DNA of 63,119 nt, from NCBI RefSeq assembly GCF_056746865.1, contig NZ_JBWKMP010000006.1; one strand, given 5' to 3'. Below, piece after piece: positions 32,628 through 62,762 of this stretch (positions are counted from its first letter, which is position 1; every line of letters starts with the position of its first letter). The notes below the pieces were generated by a model. That model ran no database searches, had not been told where the DNA came from, and was given only the letters and a program-made list of their open reading frames with translations. A program made the translations under genes and the position numbers. This DNA comes from a plasmid.

Positions 32628-35600
32628 TCATCGGCCGGGGCTGTGGGAGAGATCCTGATGCAGAGTTTTTTCCTGCCTGTCCTCCGGCTTTTGGCTGTTG
32701 GACCACTGCTGCCATGACTGCTCGAAGCCCAGGTTCCGGTACAACGCATCAGGTTGTTTTTCCGGCGTGTAGACAGCAGCAAAAAGCGGTTCTTCCCGGG
32801 TTTTCAGATGAAACTGCATAAGCTCCGGTGCGGGGCGATTCGTGCTGTCAGCATCGTGGTTTACCGCTTCACCATAACCTGCAAAGCGTAAACCTTTGTC
32901 GGTCAGCGCATTGATAACCAGCTGACTGTTGTCGGCTGATGGGGTGGCCAGTGCCGGATACAATGTGCCGTTCAGCCGGACCACACCCTGCAGATGTTCA
33001 TCGGCACTCTGGACAAGTAGCAGGTTGAGTTCACGCGTATCCTTATCCACTGATCCCAGAACAGGTGTCAGCTTGTCAGGGGCTGCGCTGGTTATTTCTG
33101 TTACCTGATTTGCGTTCTGTGGCGCGGAGACCGGATGTCGGTCTTCACCGATAAACAGATGTGAGCCGACGTTTTCTGGCATACGTAACGCTTTCATCTC
33201 TTCGGGCCACCCCTGGCTGATTTGCGCAGCCACTTTCATAAAGGTTTCGACCGGAATCGCCTGAATACGCTGACCTTTATCCGGATTATCATGTGATACC
33301 GAGATCCCGTTGGTAACTGACTCCATGGACCACTTATTCCGGAAACGTGCTTTTTGCTCTCCCGGGAGGATGAATTGTTCGCGGTTCTGAAGTGTCAGTG
33401 TCACCACGTCACCTTTCTGATGGTTTTTGACCAGACTTTCCAGTTGTTCCCCCCAGTAGAGTTTGCTGCCACTGCGGTTTTTAAGCTCAACAAAGAAACT
33501 CTCTCCTTTGCCGGGTGCATATTCAGCACGACCAAAATTGTGCAGTACGGCAGTCACGCTCTCTCCCGGGCGAAGTTTTCCTGGTGGTTCTTCACCTTGT
33601 GCCGCATCTGCCGTTTTGCCAGGTTCAGCCGGTGATGATGCAGGGACGGTGCTGACGGTTGATGCTTCAGGGGCAACTGGGGACGCCGGGGATTGTGTGG
33701 CTTCTTTTTCCTGAACGGGGTCAGGGACAGCCGGTTGTTCAGGGGTATTCCGGTTAAGTTCCGGTGTTGGCTGATGGGTGACAACAGCATCCTTACCGAC
33801 AGCCATTTCCTTGCGTAATTTTTCGAGCTCCAGACGCTGATCAGGCAATTTCATGCGCACATTGATGTTGTGCTCGATAATCAACTGCATCGCTTTTTGC
33901 TTAAAGGCATCACTGCCCGTCAGCTCAATGACGCCACCATAAAAATTAGTGGCCACAGCAAGTGCGGCCAGAACACTGCGATCGTCATTGCTGGCACCGT
34001 TGACCATTTCCAGCCGGTTTACCCGGTCAATGAAGGCAGGTTTGCCATCCAGTTTGTACAGGACGGTTCTGTCTGCTCGTTTTTCCCCTTCAGTGATTTA
34101 ATGATTTCGTCCAGATTGAGCGATATCGGTGCATCAGGACGTTCCGGGGCGTAGACAATACTGTCAGGTGTCGGTGTGGTCGTCGTGGTTTCCGGTGAGG
34201 GCGTGGGATCACTGTTCTCATGTGCCTGTGAATCCGTTTTTTTACGCGTAAAAAAGCCACGCGCTTTGTCGAGAAACGATGAAGTATTATCAGAAGGTGA
34301 TGTGCTCTGAACAGGTTGCTGTGGATTGGGTTCATCCCGGACAGCCGGTTCTGCAGTATCTGTTGTGGCCTGAAGTTCTGACTCATCTGCCTGAACGTGG
34401 TCTGTGTCCGGTTGCGACGGCATATCACTGTTTTCCTGCAGATGCTCAGGATTTTCATTGTTCATCAGCTCCTGATATGCGCTGTAGTTTTCGTATTCTT
34501 CGGGGCCATCTGACTCAGGAAGGAACGGCTCTGGCTGAAGGGGAATGTCTTCAGTTACATGGCTGACCGCCTCTTCCCGGGGAGTATCCGGGGATATTCC
34601 GGTGCTTTGTTTGTCATCAGGCTCCGTCATCACGGTCATTTCCTCTTTGACTGCATCAGGGGAAGGTGATGGCTCGGCTGATTCATTCATGGTTTCAGAT
34701 GAGGGACTGTCTTCAGGGGATGCGGGGGCGGCAGCAGGGGCCGGTATTTCAGGTGAAGTGCCGGATTCCTGTTGTGACTCGTTTTTTTCCGGTTGTGACA
34801 GTTCGGCTTCAAATTCACGCCAGTCTTTATCTGTGGCCACCGAGACAACTTTTTCCGGAGGTTCCGCCGGATGAGCGGGTTCATCAGGGGCAGATGCCGT
34901 TGTACTTTCCGGGGACGCCGGTGATTCTGCAGGGGAGTCCTGAACTACAGAGCTTTCCGTTTGCGCCTGAACGTTATCAGCGTGCCGCTCATCTTTGCCG
35001 TTATTTTCAGTGGCGTGACTGGTAAATGACTGTGTTTCATCAGCAATGTTACTGCTGGAAGCAGCTGGTTGTTCCTGCTGCGTGGCGGACGGCAGAGAAG
35101 GTCCCTGGTCATGGCTGTGCCCTGTATCGGGTGATGTTTCAGGATATTCTGTCGGAGTCATGGTTTTTTCCTCAGTGTGGACCGGTGTAAAAACGAGGTT
35201 GCCGATCACCAGTGCCTCGCGGATTTCCGGGGTGTTACTGTTGGGGGTGGAAACCCCGATGTGTTCTAACTGGGCGTTGATGACATGCTGAAAAGCGGCC
35301 CGTCCCCGGCTTGCGTCCAGGTCATTGAAATCGGTCAGCCCCTGCGCTTTTTCGGCATCGGTGAACGCAGGAAAGATGACCGTTCCTCCTGTCAGTTCTG
35401 CGGCTTTTGTTGCACTGACGATACCTTTGTTAACCCGGATTGCATGATCGTTGTCGGCACAGAAGATAAAGGGGCTTTGCGTCCACTTTTGCCGGGCATT
35501 TTCGGCAACGGCAATCATGTTGCCTCCATCCACCGTCATCAGTACCGGAAGGCCCGTGGCTTCGTGCAGGGAGGCCGCAGTGGCATAGCCCTCGGCAAAC

Positions 35601-36394
35601 AGTACCGGCTGACCGTTGCGCGGTGTGCCCAGCGCAAACCAGTTACCGGTTTTCTCTGAATCTTTCAGGATGCGGGCATCCTTCCCCCCGGTGACCGGAA
35701 TACGCTGGTAAGAGCGTATCGCGCCGTTACGGTTACTGAAGGGAATAACCAGTTCATTTTTGTTGTTTACCCGCACCCCCGGTGCAGCCTGAATGCCTTT
35801 CCGGGTCAGGTATTCATGTGCTGTGGCCTGCGGCCATTTGTTGACATAGCGGCGGGCATACGCGGCCTGTCGGTTGTACTGTGCTTTCAGTTCCCGCTCC
35901 GCGTCCTCCCTGCGTTGCATTGAATGCGCTTTCAGGTGGAGTCTTGCGCGGGGATCTGTCTGTTCTCCGCCGGAGAAGGTCCAGGTGATCGGCGAATCAT
36001 CCGCGCTGCGATAATCCCTGTACCAGCCGGCAGGTCTGCCGTCCAGGAATCCGCGATATGCGCCACTTTTTTGTCCTTTTTTGTCATCGGCGGTCGGGAC
36101 ACGGTGGATTTTCCCGTCCATGACCGGCAGTTCTTTCAGAACCAGTCCGGCATTCTCCAGAACCTGGGCAAACTCGGTGACCGGATCACTGCCGTTCATG
36201 GAGACGTCCTGTGGCCGGGGCAGCCAGCGGTCCAGCCTGGACAGGTCCGCCCCCGGGCGGGCGAACCAGAGTTTGTGCTCCTTGTCCCAGATGACGGGCG
36301 TGTGCCCGTTCATCGGGGGATGTGCTTTTTTGAGATCTTCTATTTCATCTGCAGGCACGGCAAGCCAGGTGCGGTAGCGGGATACAGACGGCAT
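32628..36394 (-). pseudogene. sogL: Sog DNA primase (SogL/SogS), frameshifted between 34022 and 34098
   Basis: N-terminal primase part (ORF ending 34019, start ATG 36394 with AGGAGA) and 459-aa C-terminal ORF (32628-34007) are in different frames; a G4A5 run at 34081-34089 is the likely indel site; Asp/Glu/Pro-rich linker is typical of Sog. Confidence 0.85.
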
Positions 36395-57535: not shown

Positions 57536-58219
57536 TCAGTGTAATGTGATAGTCGTCTGCTCCTGTGTTGCACCCCAGACATCTTCTGGCAAGCTGGGCA
57601 GCCCGATAAATAGGGTGTGAAAGAGGGTTTCTCTGCGTTCGATCCCGAATTGATGTTCGTATCCTCTCACCACCTGAAATCCTTCGTCGGAGAATATTAA
57701 CTCTGCCGTTTCCAGAAGCTGCATAGTTTTGCGGTGTAGTGGAGTGATCAGCTGCAACGTAACTGGTGCCCTCATATCGCCTGTCGGTAGAAAACACTCT
57801 TCGGTGCGACTTAGTTGTAGCAGATGGCGTTTCCCGGAACAGGCCCGTTCAATGGATTCATTGAACACCCTCTCAGGCCATGGGCAGACATAAGTGCGCC
57901 AGCCTGCTTTCTGTAATTTACCCAGCGCAGCCCGAAAACGAAACAACGGACATTCCCCGACAGTGGCAGAGCTGAGAAAGAGCGTATTCAGCGTTCCGAT
58001 GATGGGAATATTGCGATCTTTTTCGGTCAATGCTTTTAACGCCATGATTTCGCCAGGGAGACTACTGAACTCAGGATGTCTGCTGGCACCAGAAAGCCAT
58101 TCAAGCAGGTAATGCCGTAATCCGGTTTCACTGGTTATATTGTGGTTTTCCTGTGCCGTTTTCAGGGCATTCAGTGCACACCAGAGCAACTGGCGCACGG
58201 GATGTTCTGTCGTGGTCAT
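57536..58219 (-). CDS. traC: TraC-position regulatory protein
   Basis: 227-aa ORF immediately downstream of traB; symbol by synteny. Confidence 0.6.
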   Translation of the reverse strand: MTTTEHPVRQLLWCALNALKTAQENHNITSETGLRHYLLEWLSGASRHPEFSSLPGEIMALKALTEKDRNIPIIGTLNTLFLSSATVGECPLFRFRAALGKLQKAGWRTYVCPWPERVFNESIERACSGKRHLLQLSRTEECFLPTGDMRAPVTLQLITPLHRKTMQLLETAELIFSDEGFQVVRGYEHQFGIERRETLFHTLFIGLPSLPEDVWGATQEQTTITLH

Positions 58220-58472: not shown

Positions 58473-59006
58473 CTATGGGATGTTTACAAGGCGCTCCATA
58501 AAGCCGTGATGTTCGGCATTTGATACCAGTTCCAGGAGCAGGGATATCCTCGACTCAGGCTGGAGAGTATTTTCCATTCTGAGGAGATACTGATATTGTG
58601 CTTTTGTCAGCCATATGCTGGAAGCCGCATTCAGCTCTTCCCTGGCTCCCGGATTTAGCACAGGGTCCGGGTAAATCTTCATTAATCCATCAACAATATC
58701 TTTATTGACGGGTTTTATTTCACCGCCAAACTTCACGAAATCAATGAAGGCGCTATGGCGACGTAATGCCGATACTGGTTGAATGTCAAAATTAGCCAGA
58801 ATAAAAAAGTACCCTGGAAAAATAGCGAATATTCTTTCACGGTAACAGCACCTGGAGTCTGCCCGTCTTATCTTTCTTGTTATTAATGGAGTCCATGGTA
58901 CGACGTTTTGCTCATTCAGCCATGAGAATAAAGATTCTCTGTTTTTGCCGGCTGTATTATATTGCGCAAGATACCAGTTCCGGTTATTCAGGTGTTCTAT
59001 ATTCAC
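58473..59006 (-). CDS. traB: TraB, NusG/RfaH-like transcription antiterminator paralogue
   Basis: ~177-aa ORF with NusG-N-like motifs (NWYLAQY..., FPGYFFILANFD, FVKFGG); no ATG, likely GTG 59006 (TTG 59027 is the alternative). Confidence 0.65.
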   Translation of the reverse strand: MNIEHLNNRNWYLAQYNTAGKNRESLFSWLNEQNVVPWTPLITRKIRRADSRCCYRERIFAIFPGYFFILANFDIQPVSALRRHSAFIDFVKFGGEIKPVNKDIVDGLMKIYPDPVLNPGAREELNAASSIWLTKAQYQYLLRMENTLQPESRISLLLELVSNAEHHGFMERLVNIP

Positions 59007-59012
59007 GAAGTT

Positions 59013-59165
59013 CAACGCTCCGCGCAAAACCGATCCATGATGGACGATTTTGCGATGTCAGGCGAATATGCTAAATCATATGTCTGAAGCAGTGTCCAGC
59101 CCATATCTGGATAAACTGCAGTTCTGACAGGCATATAACCAGCAGACTCTAGTACGTTCTGTATC
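59013..59165 (-). repeat. conserved leader module E2 upstream of and abutting the traB start
   Basis: Same conserved ends as E1 and E3; the - strand end GCGCGGAGCGTTGAA runs into the traB initiation region. Confidence 0.5.
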
Positions 59166-59447: not shown

Positions 59448-59735
59448 TCACATTTTTTCGTTTTCTTTAGCTGTATTGCTAATCATGAAAACGAACGTTC
59501 GCATCAGCACAGCAGAGCGAAGTGCATCATATCCTTCCAGATTTAAGTTCTTCAGGCTTCGCTTCAGGTAGGTTCGTACCGTTTCGGGAGAAAGCCGACA
59601 GTTCTGAGCAATGGCGTCGTAAGGAACACCCATTGCGTAAAAAACGCAGACTTTAAGCTGGTTTGTTGATAGCTCGGGAAACATGCCTTCCAACAGAGTG
59701 ATGGCCGGGAGTTTCTGTATCAGTTGAGGTGACAT
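59448..59735 (-). CDS. traA: TraA, small LuxR/GerE-family HTH regulator
   Basis: 95 aa from ATG 59735 (GGAGA upstream) with GerE-type HTH (LSTNQLKVCVFYAMGVPYDAIAQNCRLSPETVRTYLKRSLKNL). Confidence 0.65.
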   Translation of the reverse strand: MSPQLIQKLPAITLLEGMFPELSTNQLKVCVFYAMGVPYDAIAQNCRLSPETVRTYLKRSLKNLNLEGYDALRSAVLMRTFVFMISNTAKENEKM

Positions 59736-60074
59736 AGCAAAGGTCTCCGATGACAACTAAAAACGCTATCACTGAGTTCCTACGCTCATTGGTGATAGCC
59801 CAGACGGGGGTAGGAATACCGGCGTCATCGGAAACCGGCCAGGCTAATGCCTGCCCCGCCTGAGCTACCATAGATGACGACAAGAAATACAAGTTCCTGT
59901 CTTTATGGTATGGCAAAAAACGACGCCAAATGAAGAAATTAACTTCTGCGCCGACGATGACTACGCGGGTTCCTACGCCCGATCACAGTTTTGCCTGTGA
60001 CCAGTAAAGGGTACTTAGTATAACGCACCGAGTCAACTAACAGCTTAAAAAACATACAAAAAAGCGTCAAAACT

Positions 60075-60230
60075 TAACGCTCCGCGCCGAAGCGATCCAG
60101 GCGTGATGCTTCTGCTTTGTGGCGTTCGAACATGCTGGTCCATATGCACGAAACGGTGTCTGACCCTCGTCCAGACAATCCGCAGTTCTGACGAACATAT
60201 GAACAAATATGCTCTTGTAGAGGCTGTTGT
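60075..60230 (-). repeat. conserved leader module E3 upstream of traA
   Basis: Same conserved ends as E1 and E2 (TAACGCTCCGCGCCGAAGCGATCCAGG...CCTCGTCCAGACAATCCGCAGTTCTGACGAACATATG). Confidence 0.5.
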
Positions 60231-60279
60231 TACACAATTGGCGGGTTGTGTAACAAATGGTTTTATCATCTAAGAATTA

Positions 60280-60560
60280 TTCTATTTACGATCGAATGAT
60301 CTACAAAATGATTTTTTAAAGGTTTTTTAGATCGTTTAATTGCATTAAAACAGAATATTATTCTGTTAGGTGGATCGGTTGTAAGATAAATGATCGTGAG
60401 TAGGACAAAAGTCGATCTTTTAATCCAAAAGAAAGATCTAAAGCAGAAAAATCTGCTTTTAAAAATAGATTTTATTTTTTTGACGCAGGTCAAGATTAAC
60501 TTATTAGAGGTATTAGTGAGGAGGCACTGGAAGAGAAGAGATCGTTGTAATGCTTTTCAA
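60280..60560. promoter_or_regulatory. AT-rich GATC-dense intergenic region
   Basis: Eight GATC sites in ~270 bp, several palindromic (AGATCTAAAGCAGAAAAATCTGCTTT); no credible ORF. Confidence 0.35.
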
Positions 60561-60721
60561 ATTAACGTAAAGCGGGTATATTTCGGCTGTTATTAGCTGT
60601 GCAGAGGGTGGCACTCTGTGGAGCAAAGCGGCGAAAGTCGGACGGCAGAATGCGCCATAAGGCATTCAGGAGAGATGGCATGTACGGGCAGTAAGTCAGA
60701 AGACTGAAGATGTTCCGGAAG

Positions 60722-60797
60722 CCATAAAAGGAAAACCCCCACTATCTTTCTTACGAACTTGGCGGAACGACGAAAGATAGTGGGGGCCTCACAGAAT
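60722..60797 (-). ncRNA. inc: Inc antisense RNA (copy-number control of repZ)
   Basis: Perfect 15-bp stem (60736-60750 / 60772-60786) with loop containing TTGGCG (60759-60764); - strand promoter TTGAAT-N17-TATACT (60832-60806) and T-rich tail after the stem. Confidence 0.55.
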
Positions 60798-60811
60798 ACG
60801 GGTAAAGTATA

Positions 60812-60901
60812 ATGAAACCGTACCAGAGATTCAACCCTGTGCAGTGTATAAATACACGGCACAATCGCTCCGCCATAAGCGACAGCTTGTGGCAGGTCTG
60901 A
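60812..60901 (+). CDS. repY: RepY leader peptide
   Basis: 29-codon ORF MKPYQRFNPVQCINTRHNRSAISDSLWQV ending at TGA 60899-60901, overlapping the repZ start. Confidence 0.65.
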   Translation: MKPYQRFNPVQCINTRHNRSAISDSLWQV

Positions 60902-61920
60902 AGAATACTCCATATAACGCAGTACACTGGAGTCAGTTAGCACCCGAAGAGCAGATCCGTTTCTGGGAAGACTATGAAGCGGGAAGGGCGACCACTTTCC
61001 TGGTTGAACCGGAAAGGAAGCGCACGAAGCGTCGTCGTGGTGAGCACTCCACCAAACCCAAATGCGAAAATCCGTCCTGGTATCGTCCTGAGCGCTATAA
61101 GGCGCTGAGCGGGCAGCTCGGGCACGCCTACAACCGTCTGGTGAAAAAGGACCCGGTGACCGGCGAGCAGAGCCTGCGCATGCACATGTCTCTGCATCCT
61201 TTTTACGTGCAGAAACGAACGTATGTCGGTCGCAAATATGCTTTCCGTCCGGAAAAACAACGCCTCCTCGATGCCGTCTGGCCGGTTCTGGTCAGCTTCA
61301 GTGATGCGGGCACACATACCGTAGGCATGAGTGTTTCCCGTCTGGCCAGAGAAATCAGCCCGAAAGACAGCAAGGGGAAGGTTATTCCGGAACTGGAAGT
61401 GACGGTCTCCCGCCTTTCCCGTTTGCTGGCCGAACAGGTACGTTTTGGTGTGCTGGGTGTTTCAGAGGAAACCCTGTGGGACCGTGAAACCCGCCAGCGT
61501 CTGCCACGTTACGTCTGGATAACACCGGCAGGCTGGCAGATGCTGGGCGTCGACATGGTAAAACTTCACGAACAGCAGCAGAAACGACTGCGTGAAAGTG
61601 AAATCCGCCAGCAGCTCATTCGGGAAGGTGTTCTGCGTGAGGATGAAGATATCTCCGTACATGCGGCCAGAAAACGCTGGTATCTGCAGCGCAGCCAGGA
61701 TGCACTGAAACACCGTCGTGCAAAAGCGGCAGCCAGTAAGCGCGCCAGACGCCTGAAGAAACTGCCTGCCGACCAGCAGATTCATGAGATGGCAGAGTAT
61801 CTCAGGAAGCGTCTGCCGCCGGATGAAGCCTATTTTTGTTCCGATGACCATCTGAAGCGACTGGCCATCAGGGAGTTGCGTCAGCTTGAACTGACGCTGG
61901 CTGCGCCACCGCCGCACTAG
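60889..61920 (+). CDS. repZ: RepZ replication initiator (IncFII-RepA-family)
   Basis: 343 aa from GTG 60889 (no in-frame ATG available); preceded by repY and the Inc hairpin, followed by a DnaA box; the ORF-track start at 60844 is an upstream extension. Confidence 0.75.
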   Translation: MAGLKNTPYNAVHWSQLAPEEQIRFWEDYEAGRATTFLVEPERKRTKRRRGEHSTKPKCENPSWYRPERYKALSGQLGHAYNRLVKKDPVTGEQSLRMHMSLHPFYVQKRTYVGRKYAFRPEKQRLLDAVWPVLVSFSDAGTHTVGMSVSRLAREISPKDSKGKVIPELEVTVSRLSRLLAEQVRFGVLGVSEETLWDRETRQRLPRYVWITPAGWQMLGVDMVKLHEQQQKRLRESEIRQQLIREGVLREDEDISVHAARKRWYLQRSQDALKHRRAKAAASKRARRLKKLPADQQIHEMAEYLRKRLPPDEAYFCSDDHLKRLAIRELRQLELTLAAPPPH

Positions 61921-62086: not shown

Positions 62087-62095
62087 TTATCCACA
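62087..62095 (+). promoter_or_regulatory. DnaA box in the putative oriV
   Basis: Perfect TTATCCACA ~170 bp downstream of repZ. Confidence 0.4.
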
Positions 62096-62762
62096 TAAAT
62101 CCGCAAACAAAGAACTTTAAAAAGCTGCAAACCTGAAACAGCAAACCTGCAATATAGTCCTAACCCCATTATTTAATCCCCTGCGTTGCTTCGCCGCAGG
62201 GAAAGTCTTTATCTCTGAAACCACTGTGAACAAATTAAGAGGCCTTCGCTTGCAGCGGCCAAGGCCTCGCCGCTCAGAATCAAGAAGCCTCCACGCTAAC
62301 GCGCGGGCCCCGAACCTGATTTCAGCGCAAACCTCAATGCAACCACCCACACAAACACGACGCCGCTGACCCCTCATAACTGAAAAGCAGAGAAGCCGCC
62401 CGCCCGAAGAGGACGGCGTCAGCTTGACGCTTGATATTTAATCTCCTGCCATCATTCATCTCTCAATAATGTAAAGATCACATCATCACCGACCATAACC
62501 GTTAACGCAGAGATCGCCCGACTTAATCCCATATAGCGACCACTCAACCACACCGCACAGAAGCTATTTCATGGCTGAAAGCGGGTATGGCTTCCAGACT
62601 GGCGGCGATCGTTAGCGCTAATATGATCGGTAAAGCGTACCATTTAAGCGGTTTGTTGCTGTGTAACAACGGGGTCCGGCACCTTATCCTGACGCGCATT
62701 ATTTGCCTTGTTTCGTCTGAAAGTAATCACTATGATTAAATATGATTAACAGCTAATCGGAT

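Follow-up and report, generated by a model that had tools for sequence, protein, structure and literature searches.

A dense GATC cluster between the tra-regulator leader and the repZ promoter as a candidate Dam-methylation-sensing region of I-complex plasmids

INTRODUCTION

Why should a short AT-rich spacer between the transfer-regulator gene traA and the repZ replicon of an IncI1/Igamma resistance plasmid be crowded with GATC, the Dam methylation site? This question is raised by positions 60280-60560 of contig NZ_JBWKMP010000006.1, a stretch of 63,119 nucleotides that is hereafter called the window. In E. coli, Salmonella, and Shigella, I-complex plasmids are major carriers of resistance genes, among them those for extended-spectrum β-lactamases (ESBL). 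Their copy-number control has so far been ascribed entirely to the Inc antisense RNA and a pseudoknot, and their transfer control to traABC and a poorly understood region named Hft. A Dam-site array between both units would add an epigenetic, replication-coupled layer to the control of replication and transfer. Clusters of GATC that tie the activity of a promoter or an origin to the methylation state are known, and the cluster of the I-complex plasmids is apparently undescribed.

RESULTS

Eight Dam sites within 254 bp exceed chance expectation

The central feature is the following.

60290..60543, both strands: GATC (Dam site) cluster, eight sites, against about one expected

The sites start at 60290, 60298, 60330, 60373, 60392, 60414, 60435, and 60540 (sites 1-8), and the surrounding 281-bp stretch has a G+C content of 30%, compared with 50% window-wide. 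The original prediction had counted eight Dam sites in about 270 bp where about one was expected, and this count was borne out, with 8 sites in 254 bp against an expectation of 0.7-1.2. The base composition of the region and the window-wide rate each predicted 0.70 sites, and dinucleotide shuffles of the local sequence (n = 5000) predicted 1.13; the maximum in a shuffle was 6, and none of the 5000 reached 8. GATC ranked first of all 256 tetramers for over-representation in the region (8 vs 1.17 Markov-expected, P ~3e-5) and was the only palindromic tetramer that was over-represented; ATCG and TCGT were likewise over-represented.

Within the window, the cluster was the densest 260-bp stretch. 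The runner-up had 4 GATCs, and the remaining AT-rich 260-bp stretches had 0-1 each. Over its full length the window was depleted of GATC, with 171 sites against 262 +/- 13 in dinucleotide shuffles, every one of which was higher, and this makes the cluster more conspicuous. An artefact of chance or composition was thus ruled out by the local and global shuffles and by the other AT-rich stretches. The earlier remark that several sites lie in palindromes was overstated: only two are in 6-bp palindromes, CGATCG (60289) and AGATCT (60434), although some sites lie within longer imperfect inverted repeats.

The second of these palindromes is a BglII site (60434-60439, GATC site 7), from which many IncI1 database records conventionally number their coordinates; their sequences end at window 60433-60434. 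In such records, the cluster is therefore divided between the two ends when it reaches an annotation pipeline.

GATC density is kept in relatives with turnover of sites

By BLAST, this region of the window was 95-100% identical to that of more than 1000 IncI1/Igamma plasmids from E. coli, Salmonella, and Shigella, and the IncI1 version of the spacer was found in IncI1/Igamma plasmids only. The plasmid pESBL-EA11 was collinear with the window (offset 24364), with 1581 of 1601 bases identical, no indels, and all eight GATCs present (pESBL 35926, 35934, 35966, 36009, 36028, 36050, 36071, and 36176). The homology of the rep leader to the IncK, IncZ, and IncB/O plasmids (K/Z/B-O) appeared by BLAST to begin near 60633, and a MAFFT alignment indicated that the whole traB-rep spacer is homologous in these plasmids, where its AT-rich part is only 56-59% identical. 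The IncI1 form of the region is present in about 1450 plasmid records and the K/Z/B-O form in about 550.

The homologous interval of the K/Z/B-O plasmids contained 5-9 GATCs, of which only 2-3 were in the same columns as those of IncI1. For example, site 8 of IncI1, GAGATCGT, reads GAAATCGT in K/Z, and K/Z plasmids have a GATC directly after the -10 hexamer where IncI1 has none. When the IncI1 sequence was mutated neutrally to 56-59% identity, a mean of 1.4-1.7 GATCs was left and the probability of at least 5 was 0.013-0.02, whereas the actual number was 5-6. With so many sites against about 1.5 under neutrality and few shared columns, the alignments indicate that GATC density is kept, with turnover of the sites, across diverged clades. 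In nine K/Z/B-O sequences that were 84-95% identical to one another, 1 of 24 GATC columns varied, compared with 108 of 454 other columns (Fisher p = 0.023); the five core GATC sites were invariant, against 24% of the other columns that varied. A 7-bp unit, GATCGTA, was present in 1, 2, or 3 tandem copies in the K/Z/B-O sequences L003, L004, and L012 (about -260 to -246 from the leader anchor), so that slippage alters the number of Dam sites.

Most losses of sites in the IncI1 clade were found in the bfp plasmid pEA13_1, whose I-type tra region is degenerate and which is without sites 1, 3, and 4. Plasmids of enterohaemorrhagic E. coli (EHEC) with defective tra genes retained 8-9 sites, and the persistence of the cluster in these tra-defective plasmids argues for a role linked to rep.

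Clusters were also found in more distant replicons. IncI2 has a GATC-N4-GATC pair, the palindrome ACAGAATAATATTCTGT, and two further GATCs within 105 bp, and the left neighbour of this cluster differs from that in IncI1. The replicon of Citrobacter werkmanii has six GATCs in 135 bp and a shorter palindrome, AGAATAATATTCT, and relatives from Buttiauxella and a metagenome-assembled genome (MAG) have 4-5 GATCs in 60-115 bp. The Rep identity of the Citrobacter, Buttiauxella, and MAG relatives was 61-78%, and each of these clusters, including that of IncI2, is followed by rep at a distance of 450-720 bp. In IncFII-type relatives, a cluster is missing, and a single GATC lies within TGATCGTTTAAAGAAT in the repA-promoter area. 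The start of the IncI2 repA transcript has been mapped by 5'-RACE at -253 (PMC8053102), and one IncI2 GATC (L018 1510) lies about 10 nt upstream of this start. A GATC in or beside the rep core promoter is thus common to IncI1, K/Z, IncI2, and the IncFII relatives.

Arrangement of the sites between two divergent promoters

The elements within and around the cluster are as follows.

60554..60582, + strand: predicted repZ promoter from a promoter scan, with -35 TTTTCA (60554-60559), a 17-nt spacer, and -10 TATATT (60577-60582); predicted start near 60589
60279..60306, - strand: predicted leftward promoter of the tra-regulator leader (P_left), read from the sequence, with -35 TTGTAG (60306-60301), a 16-nt spacer, and -10 TAGAAT (60284-60279); predicted start near 60272
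60328..60341, + strand: site 3 in the motif TAGATCGTTTAATT, the most conserved GATC
60349..60367: perfect 9+9 palindrome AACAGAATA-T-TATTCTGTT, flanked by sites 3 and 4 and also conserved in K/Z and IncI2
60373..60438: central run of four GATCs with spacings of 19, 22, and 21 bp (about two helical turns)
60440..60459: AT-rich hairpin or palindrome AAAGCAGA-AAAA-TCTGCTTT, terminator-like on both strands, IncI1-specific
60475..60493, + strand: conserved block TTTTTTTGACGCAGGTCAA, containing a -35-like hexamer TTGACG
60227..60256, - strand: 11-bp perfect hairpin at the start of the predicted leftward leader, loop CCCGCCAA (-11.7 kcal/mol, z = -4.3)

Site 8 ends 10 bp upstream of the predicted repZ -35, and the two hexamer regions of this promoter, GCTTTTCAAA and GGTATATT, were invariant in all 16 of the I1 and K/Z/B-O sequences compared. 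On the other side, the 16-nt spacer of P_left contains sites 1 and 2 of IncI1. P_left is a weak predicted promoter that the consensus promoter scan did not pick up; in the alignment, it matched column for column a stronger promoter of the K/Z plasmids, TTGCCA-16-TAATAT. Between the two promoters, site 3 was invariant in a five-sequence I1-K/Z alignment and was lost in one examined plasmid only (pEA13_1, which has GGTC). It overlaps a 10-mer, TCGTTTAATT, that resembles the H-NS template. The palindrome next to it has counterparts in the IncI2 palindrome and in the shorter, related one of the Citrobacter relative (L024), and L006 carries a symmetrical change in it (CAGC...GCTG). The block TTTTTTTGACGCAGGTCAA is largely kept between IncI1 and K/Z, with one or two positions varying per clade (L013 reads TTTTTTTGATTTATGTCAA). 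The hairpin at 60440-60459 was not conserved in the K/Z alignment.

Seven of the eight GATCs are in phase at a period of 10.5 bp (R = 0.875, p ~0.003). SeqA prefers GATC sites that share one helix face (PMC2691817), and by the rule of that work, same-face GATC pairs at up to about 3 turns, the IncI1 cluster has SeqA-type geometry.

Position of the cluster relative to the replicon and the traA module

The original prediction placed the cluster between traA and the replicon, which agrees with the following local map, drawn from the annotation of near-identical records and from Rfam.

57536-58219, - strand: traC
58473-59027, - strand: traB, NusG-like regulator
59448-59735, - strand: traA
59788-59875, - strand: C4-type antisense RNA (Rfam, 77.5 bits, exceeding the gathering score)
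59962-60014, - strand: weaker c4-a1b1 match (Rfam, under the gathering score)
60728-60876, + strand: repZ leader pseudoknot region, which marks the replicon (Rfam PK-repZ, 194.5 bits)
~60728-60821, - strand: Inc RNA antisense (CopA-like RNA model, 38.2 bits, under the gathering score of 60)
60812-60901: repY
~60889-61920, + strand: repZ
62088-62096: DnaA box of the origin, downstream of repZ

To the left of the cluster is the leader upstream of the Hft/C4-traA module, and to its right the predicted repZ promoter. The cluster is about 1.5-1.8 kb upstream of the origin, across repZ from it.

Hft is a 270-bp region of pESBL in which transposon insertions gave rise to superspreader mutants (PMC4288162), and a traA::lacZ signal was lost on its deletion (PMC5801416). 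From the latter result, the traA promoter is probably located in this separate region, outside the cluster. Hft (pESBL 35394-35663) corresponds to window 59758-60027, about 260 bp leftward, and the cluster as part of the superspreader locus was therefore ruled out.

DISCUSSION

A possible hemimethylation-sensing control region

We propose that the cluster serves I-complex plasmids as a conserved control region, situated in their divergent promoter spacer, that senses hemimethylation through its Dam sites, and give this reading a probability of about 0.45, which is slightly short of even odds. We infer the dependence on SeqA and Dam, the identity of the IncI1 promoters, and the direction and size of the effect from comparison of sequences.

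According to this proposal, the passage of a replication fork, or complementary-strand synthesis in a new transconjugant, would leave all eight GATCs hemimethylated. The seven same-face sites, with four at about two-turn spacing, would favour cooperative binding of SeqA, and Dam may remethylate the sites more slowly because of their AT-rich flanks. Once bound, the region would transiently occlude the repZ promoter, with a GATC only 10 bp upstream of its -35, and perhaps likewise the leftward promoter with its two GATCs in the spacer. Such occlusion would supplement the copy-number control by Inc RNA with a brief refractory period after replication or entry, analogous to the sequestration of the dnaA promoter. 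H-NS may share the cluster, as site 3 matches its nucleation template.

The original prediction had suggested a methylation-sensitive promoter or SeqA-binding region that couples tra-regulator or repZ expression to the replication state. The comparative evidence, namely density kept with turnover, invariant core sites in K/Z/B-O, phasing, and a GATC at the rep promoters, fits a selected element of this kind. Since the traA promoter apparently lies in Hft, coupling to repZ is better supported than coupling to traA. In fresh pESBL transconjugants, repZ mRNA was unexpectedly lower than in donors (PMC12672017). If the repZ promoter is repressed while newly completed DNA is still hemimethylated, low repZ mRNA in transconjugants would follow, and this agreement is circumstantial. 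The cluster thus offers a testable account of low repZ expression just after conjugation, and point mutations in its GATCs would be a simple handle on the timing of plasmid establishment.

A wider proposal is that a dedicated hemimethylation sensor in the spacer between the tra-activator operon and the rep promoter is common to all I-complex plasmids (IncI1, Igamma, K, B/O, and Z) and, as a smaller cluster of four to five sites, to IncI2, and that it resets the tra-activator and rep promoters at each replication or cell entry. We regard this as doubtful. If true, it would provide a replication eclipse independent of the antisense RNA, would time a burst or shut-off of the transfer-gene activators in new transconjugants, and would account for the unexplained drop in repZ mRNA in fresh pESBL transconjugants.

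Several observations weigh against a hemimethylation-sensing role. In seven IncI1 sequences, the GATC columns were no more conserved than the others (5/32 vs 54/439 varied, p = 0.58). The phasing was not reproduced in K/Z plasmids, whose spacings are 61, 21, 40, and 133 bp; helical phasing as a general feature was ruled out, being confined to IncI1, where it may be due to chance. Many sites carry an oriented extension, GATCGT(T), found 21 times on the + strand and 7 times on the - strand (p = 0.0125), which is unexplained by symmetric recognition by Dam or SeqA. The origin proper, with its DnaA box, has no GATC, so that origin sequestration is not involved. Moreover, many database records begin at the BglII site within the cluster, and published ColIb-P9 coordinates (GGCG 327-330, CGCC 437-440) fit a numbering that starts at this site. 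The classic mini-replicons are probably without sites 1-6 and yet replicate, and any role of the cluster would therefore be modulatory and not essential for replication. The literature search found no Dam, SeqA, methylome, or transcription-start data on the region, no methylome or ChIP data on IncI plasmids, and no paper that ties these plasmids to Dam, SeqA, or the cluster. Transposon insertions and a deletion in the neighbouring Hft left repZ mRNA unchanged (PMC4288162), a result that says nothing direct on the cluster.

Alternative explanations

The GATCs could instead be incidental to protein binding sites. H-NS/Hha on TCG(T/A)TA(A/T)ATT-like motifs, or a factor recognising (A/T)AGATCGTT, would silence the divergent tra-leader and rep promoters, and Dam would be irrelevant or would only tune the binding. 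Dam methylation reportedly tunes the binding of H-NS at finP of the Salmonella virulence plasmid. Such sites would explain the oriented flank: the base after GATC is G in 21 of 43 sites, followed by T, T, and the strand bias is 21 vs 7. They would also fit the over-representation of ATCG and TCGT in a region of 30% G+C and the conserved perfect palindrome that adjoins the sites. Besides GATCGT(T), no conserved box was found around the sites. With the H-NS template tCG(t/a)TA(a/t)ATt (PMC2094087), TCGTTTAATT at site 3 matched at 9 of 10 positions and its K/Z orthologue TCGTTATATT at 10 of 10, and the hha homologue of pESBL behaves as essential in transposon insertion sequencing (PMC4288162). 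However, the good match is confined to this single orthologous site, the other sites being poor, and matches of at least 8/10 (four in the region vs ~0.8 expected) are ordinary for AT-rich DNA. AT-richness or H-NS binding alone does not create GATCs, as the other AT-rich stretches of the plasmid have 0-1, and it is the GATC core that is conserved where the flanks have diverged heavily, for example at the K/Z sites at -254 and -233. Taken together, we consider this explanation unlikely.

The cluster may also be a historical by-product without present function, in which duplication or slippage of an ancestral promoter-like GATCGTT unit, related to TGATCGTTTAAAGAAT of IncFII, produced GATCs that have simply not decayed. 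The motif in common with the IncFII repA-promoter area, the variable tandem copies of GATCGTA in K/Z by which slippage makes sites, the lack of excess conservation of GATC columns in IncI1, and the loss of three sites in pEA13_1 speak for this reading. It does not explain why the density is kept at 56-59% identity by mostly non-orthologous sites when about 1.5 would be left under neutrality, why the five core K/Z sites are invariant, or why the feature recurs in IncI2 and the Citrobacter and Buttiauxella relatives. We therefore consider a by-product quite unlikely. If the cluster is inert, GATC density like that of oriC can persist without function.

An epigenetic phase-variation switch of the pap/agn43/opvAB type, in which Lrp, OxyR, or a similar protein shields subsets of GATCs and sets a heritable ON/OFF state of the tra-regulator operon in a transfer-competent subpopulation, is in our view very unlikely. 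In its favour, multiple phased GATCs lie upstream of a promoter, and site 6, TCGATCTTTTAAT, resembles the pap 'GATC box'. In line with such a switch, the transfer of IncI1 plasmids is as a rule repressed, with activity in a minority of only few cells (PMC5801416). However, a pap-type GATC box at site 6 was ruled out, as its flanks vary within IncI1 (GATCCTTT in L015) and differ in K/Z (GATCTCTT or GATCGATT). No PapI-like or other local regulator gene is adjacent, the cluster is kept in plasmids without a working transfer system and in IncI2 with its different left neighbour, and the literature search found no methylome evidence of stably unmethylated sites.

Finally, we consider it highly improbable that the cluster acts structurally when a round of replication ends, with SeqA at the late-copied cluster holding sister plasmids together or stimulating decatenation or partition. 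The site geometry is SeqA-compatible, and repZ separates the cluster from the origin about 1.5-1.8 kb downstream, so that the cluster would be among the last DNA copied if replication is unidirectional as in R1. However, no Tus Ter site was found in the cluster, or above chance elsewhere in the window, and the GATC that all relatives have within or beside the rep core promoter points to transcription.

Comparison with known Dam-dependent systems

Among the known systems most like the proposed control region are the SeqA sequestration clusters of oriC and of the dnaA promoter in E. coli. GATCs are about as dense here (8 in 254 bp) as at oriC (about 11 in 245 bp), the DNA is AT-rich, the sites lie on the same face at 1-3 turns, and the cluster is beside the promoter of a replication initiator gene. 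Unlike those clusters, it is not at an origin, the plasmid origin having no GATC, it contains no DnaA boxes, and the classic IncI1 mini-replicons appear to be without most of it.

In work by Camacho and Casadesus, traJ and finP of the Salmonella virulence plasmid and of F-like plasmids were reportedly found to be under Dam control. These are also conjugative plasmids with GATC in the control region of a transfer regulator, with hemimethylation after replication or transfer as the proposed signal and with interplay of Lrp or H-NS. However, one or two GATCs lie there within defined Lrp or promoter sites, whereas eight lie here in a spacer shared with a replication promoter; the IncI1 transfer system is unrelated (MPF_I), and its traA promoter is seemingly in Hft, outside the cluster.

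In the P1 oriR, GATCs lie inside the heptamer repeats of the origin and full methylation is needed for initiation, and the IS10 transposase promoter has a single hemimethylation-sensitive GATC in its -10. Both are control DNA of mobile elements whose activity is tied to the methylation state of GATC and hence to fork passage, but neither has an upstream phased GATC array. The pap, agn43, and opvAB switches also have several GATCs at helically related spacing upstream of a promoter; the present cluster differs in having no conserved regulator-binding box and no local co-regulator, and in being kept where no transfer system exists. In the repA promoter region of IncFII (R1/R100-type) plasmids, which have the same Rep family and the same antisense-RNA control, TGATCGTTTAAAGAAT just upstream of the CopA-target region looks homologous to (T)AGATCGTTTAA of the I-complex, but there a single GATC and the CopB repressor gene stand in place of the cluster.

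Other candidates and neighbouring features

Further identities of the region were rejected. A search of 60200-60650 for the DnaA boxes of a secondary origin or DNA unwinding element found none at fewer than 2 mismatches, the real box being that at 62088-62096. For a Tus-Ter fork trap (core GNRNGTTGTAAYKA), the best match, at 60540, had 2 mismatches, and the window total was 15 against a shuffle mean of 23.8; the GTTGTAA that follows sites 4 and 8 is not conserved in K/Z. For an iteron or Rep-binding array, there was no repeat family beyond short two-copy matches. The RepA consensus of R1 is TCNTTTAAA; a motif, TCGTTTAA, resembled it, but the consensus itself had 0 matches in the window, including the origin, and Rep-binding sites were rejected. 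The cluster and the ori region had 15 10-mers in common, which is not above shuffles (mean 7.7, maximum 29). Coding potential was also rejected, as the 68-aa and 75-aa open reading frames (ORFs) in the cluster and a 74-aa ORF (60045-60269) are broken by indels in relatives; no similarity of the tested ORFs to the long form of TraB was found. An Rfam search gave no match at E <= 1 within 60280-60560. Four more GATCs form a second, weaker group at 62476-62628, beyond the origin as seen from repZ, and two of them read GATCGTT and GATCGGT like sites 3 and 4. As a partner cluster it was ruled out, since it is absent from an otherwise near-identical plasmid (L001).

The leftward leader has features of its own. 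The - strand loop CCCGCCAA of the hairpin at 60227-60256 has the hexamer CGCCAA in common with the Inc RNA loop, and is thus complementary to the GGCG of repZ structure I. Judging from this complementarity, the tra-leader RNA might pair with the repZ leader. At the aligned position, K/Z plasmids have a weaker hairpin with other stems and the loop CCCGCCU. At 60061-60094 on the - strand, terminator-like hairpins with a T-run are made by a 20-nt IncI1-specific insertion that is absent in K/Z. The ancestral traB leader may end there in IncI1, either as an RNA of about 200 nt from ~60272 or as an attenuator for the NusG-like TraB.

Hft coincides exactly with the Rfam C4 match and weaker c4-a1b1 and isrK matches, both below the gathering score. 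By this similarity it looks like a phage P1 immI-type C4 RNA module upstream of traA-traB-traC; a literature search found no paper that ties C4 RNA to Hft or IncI1. An ORF annotated as 'ash family protein' or Hp1 (59653-59916), which overlaps the C4 module of Hft, is probably spurious.

The RepA of IncK2/Z (L005 2771-3640) and RepZ (window 60889-61917) have only 23% identity, despite a clearly homologous upstream control region and leader, and by this comparison the control region and the initiator gene are shuffled as separate modules. In Citrobacter werkmanii (L024 170-1591) and Buttiauxella noackiae (L029 739-1296), a NusG-like traB homologue, accompanied in L024 by traC, reads away from the GATC-rich spacer and rep. 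The same layout in both indicates that the arrangement of NusG-like regulator, GATC spacer, and rep is old.

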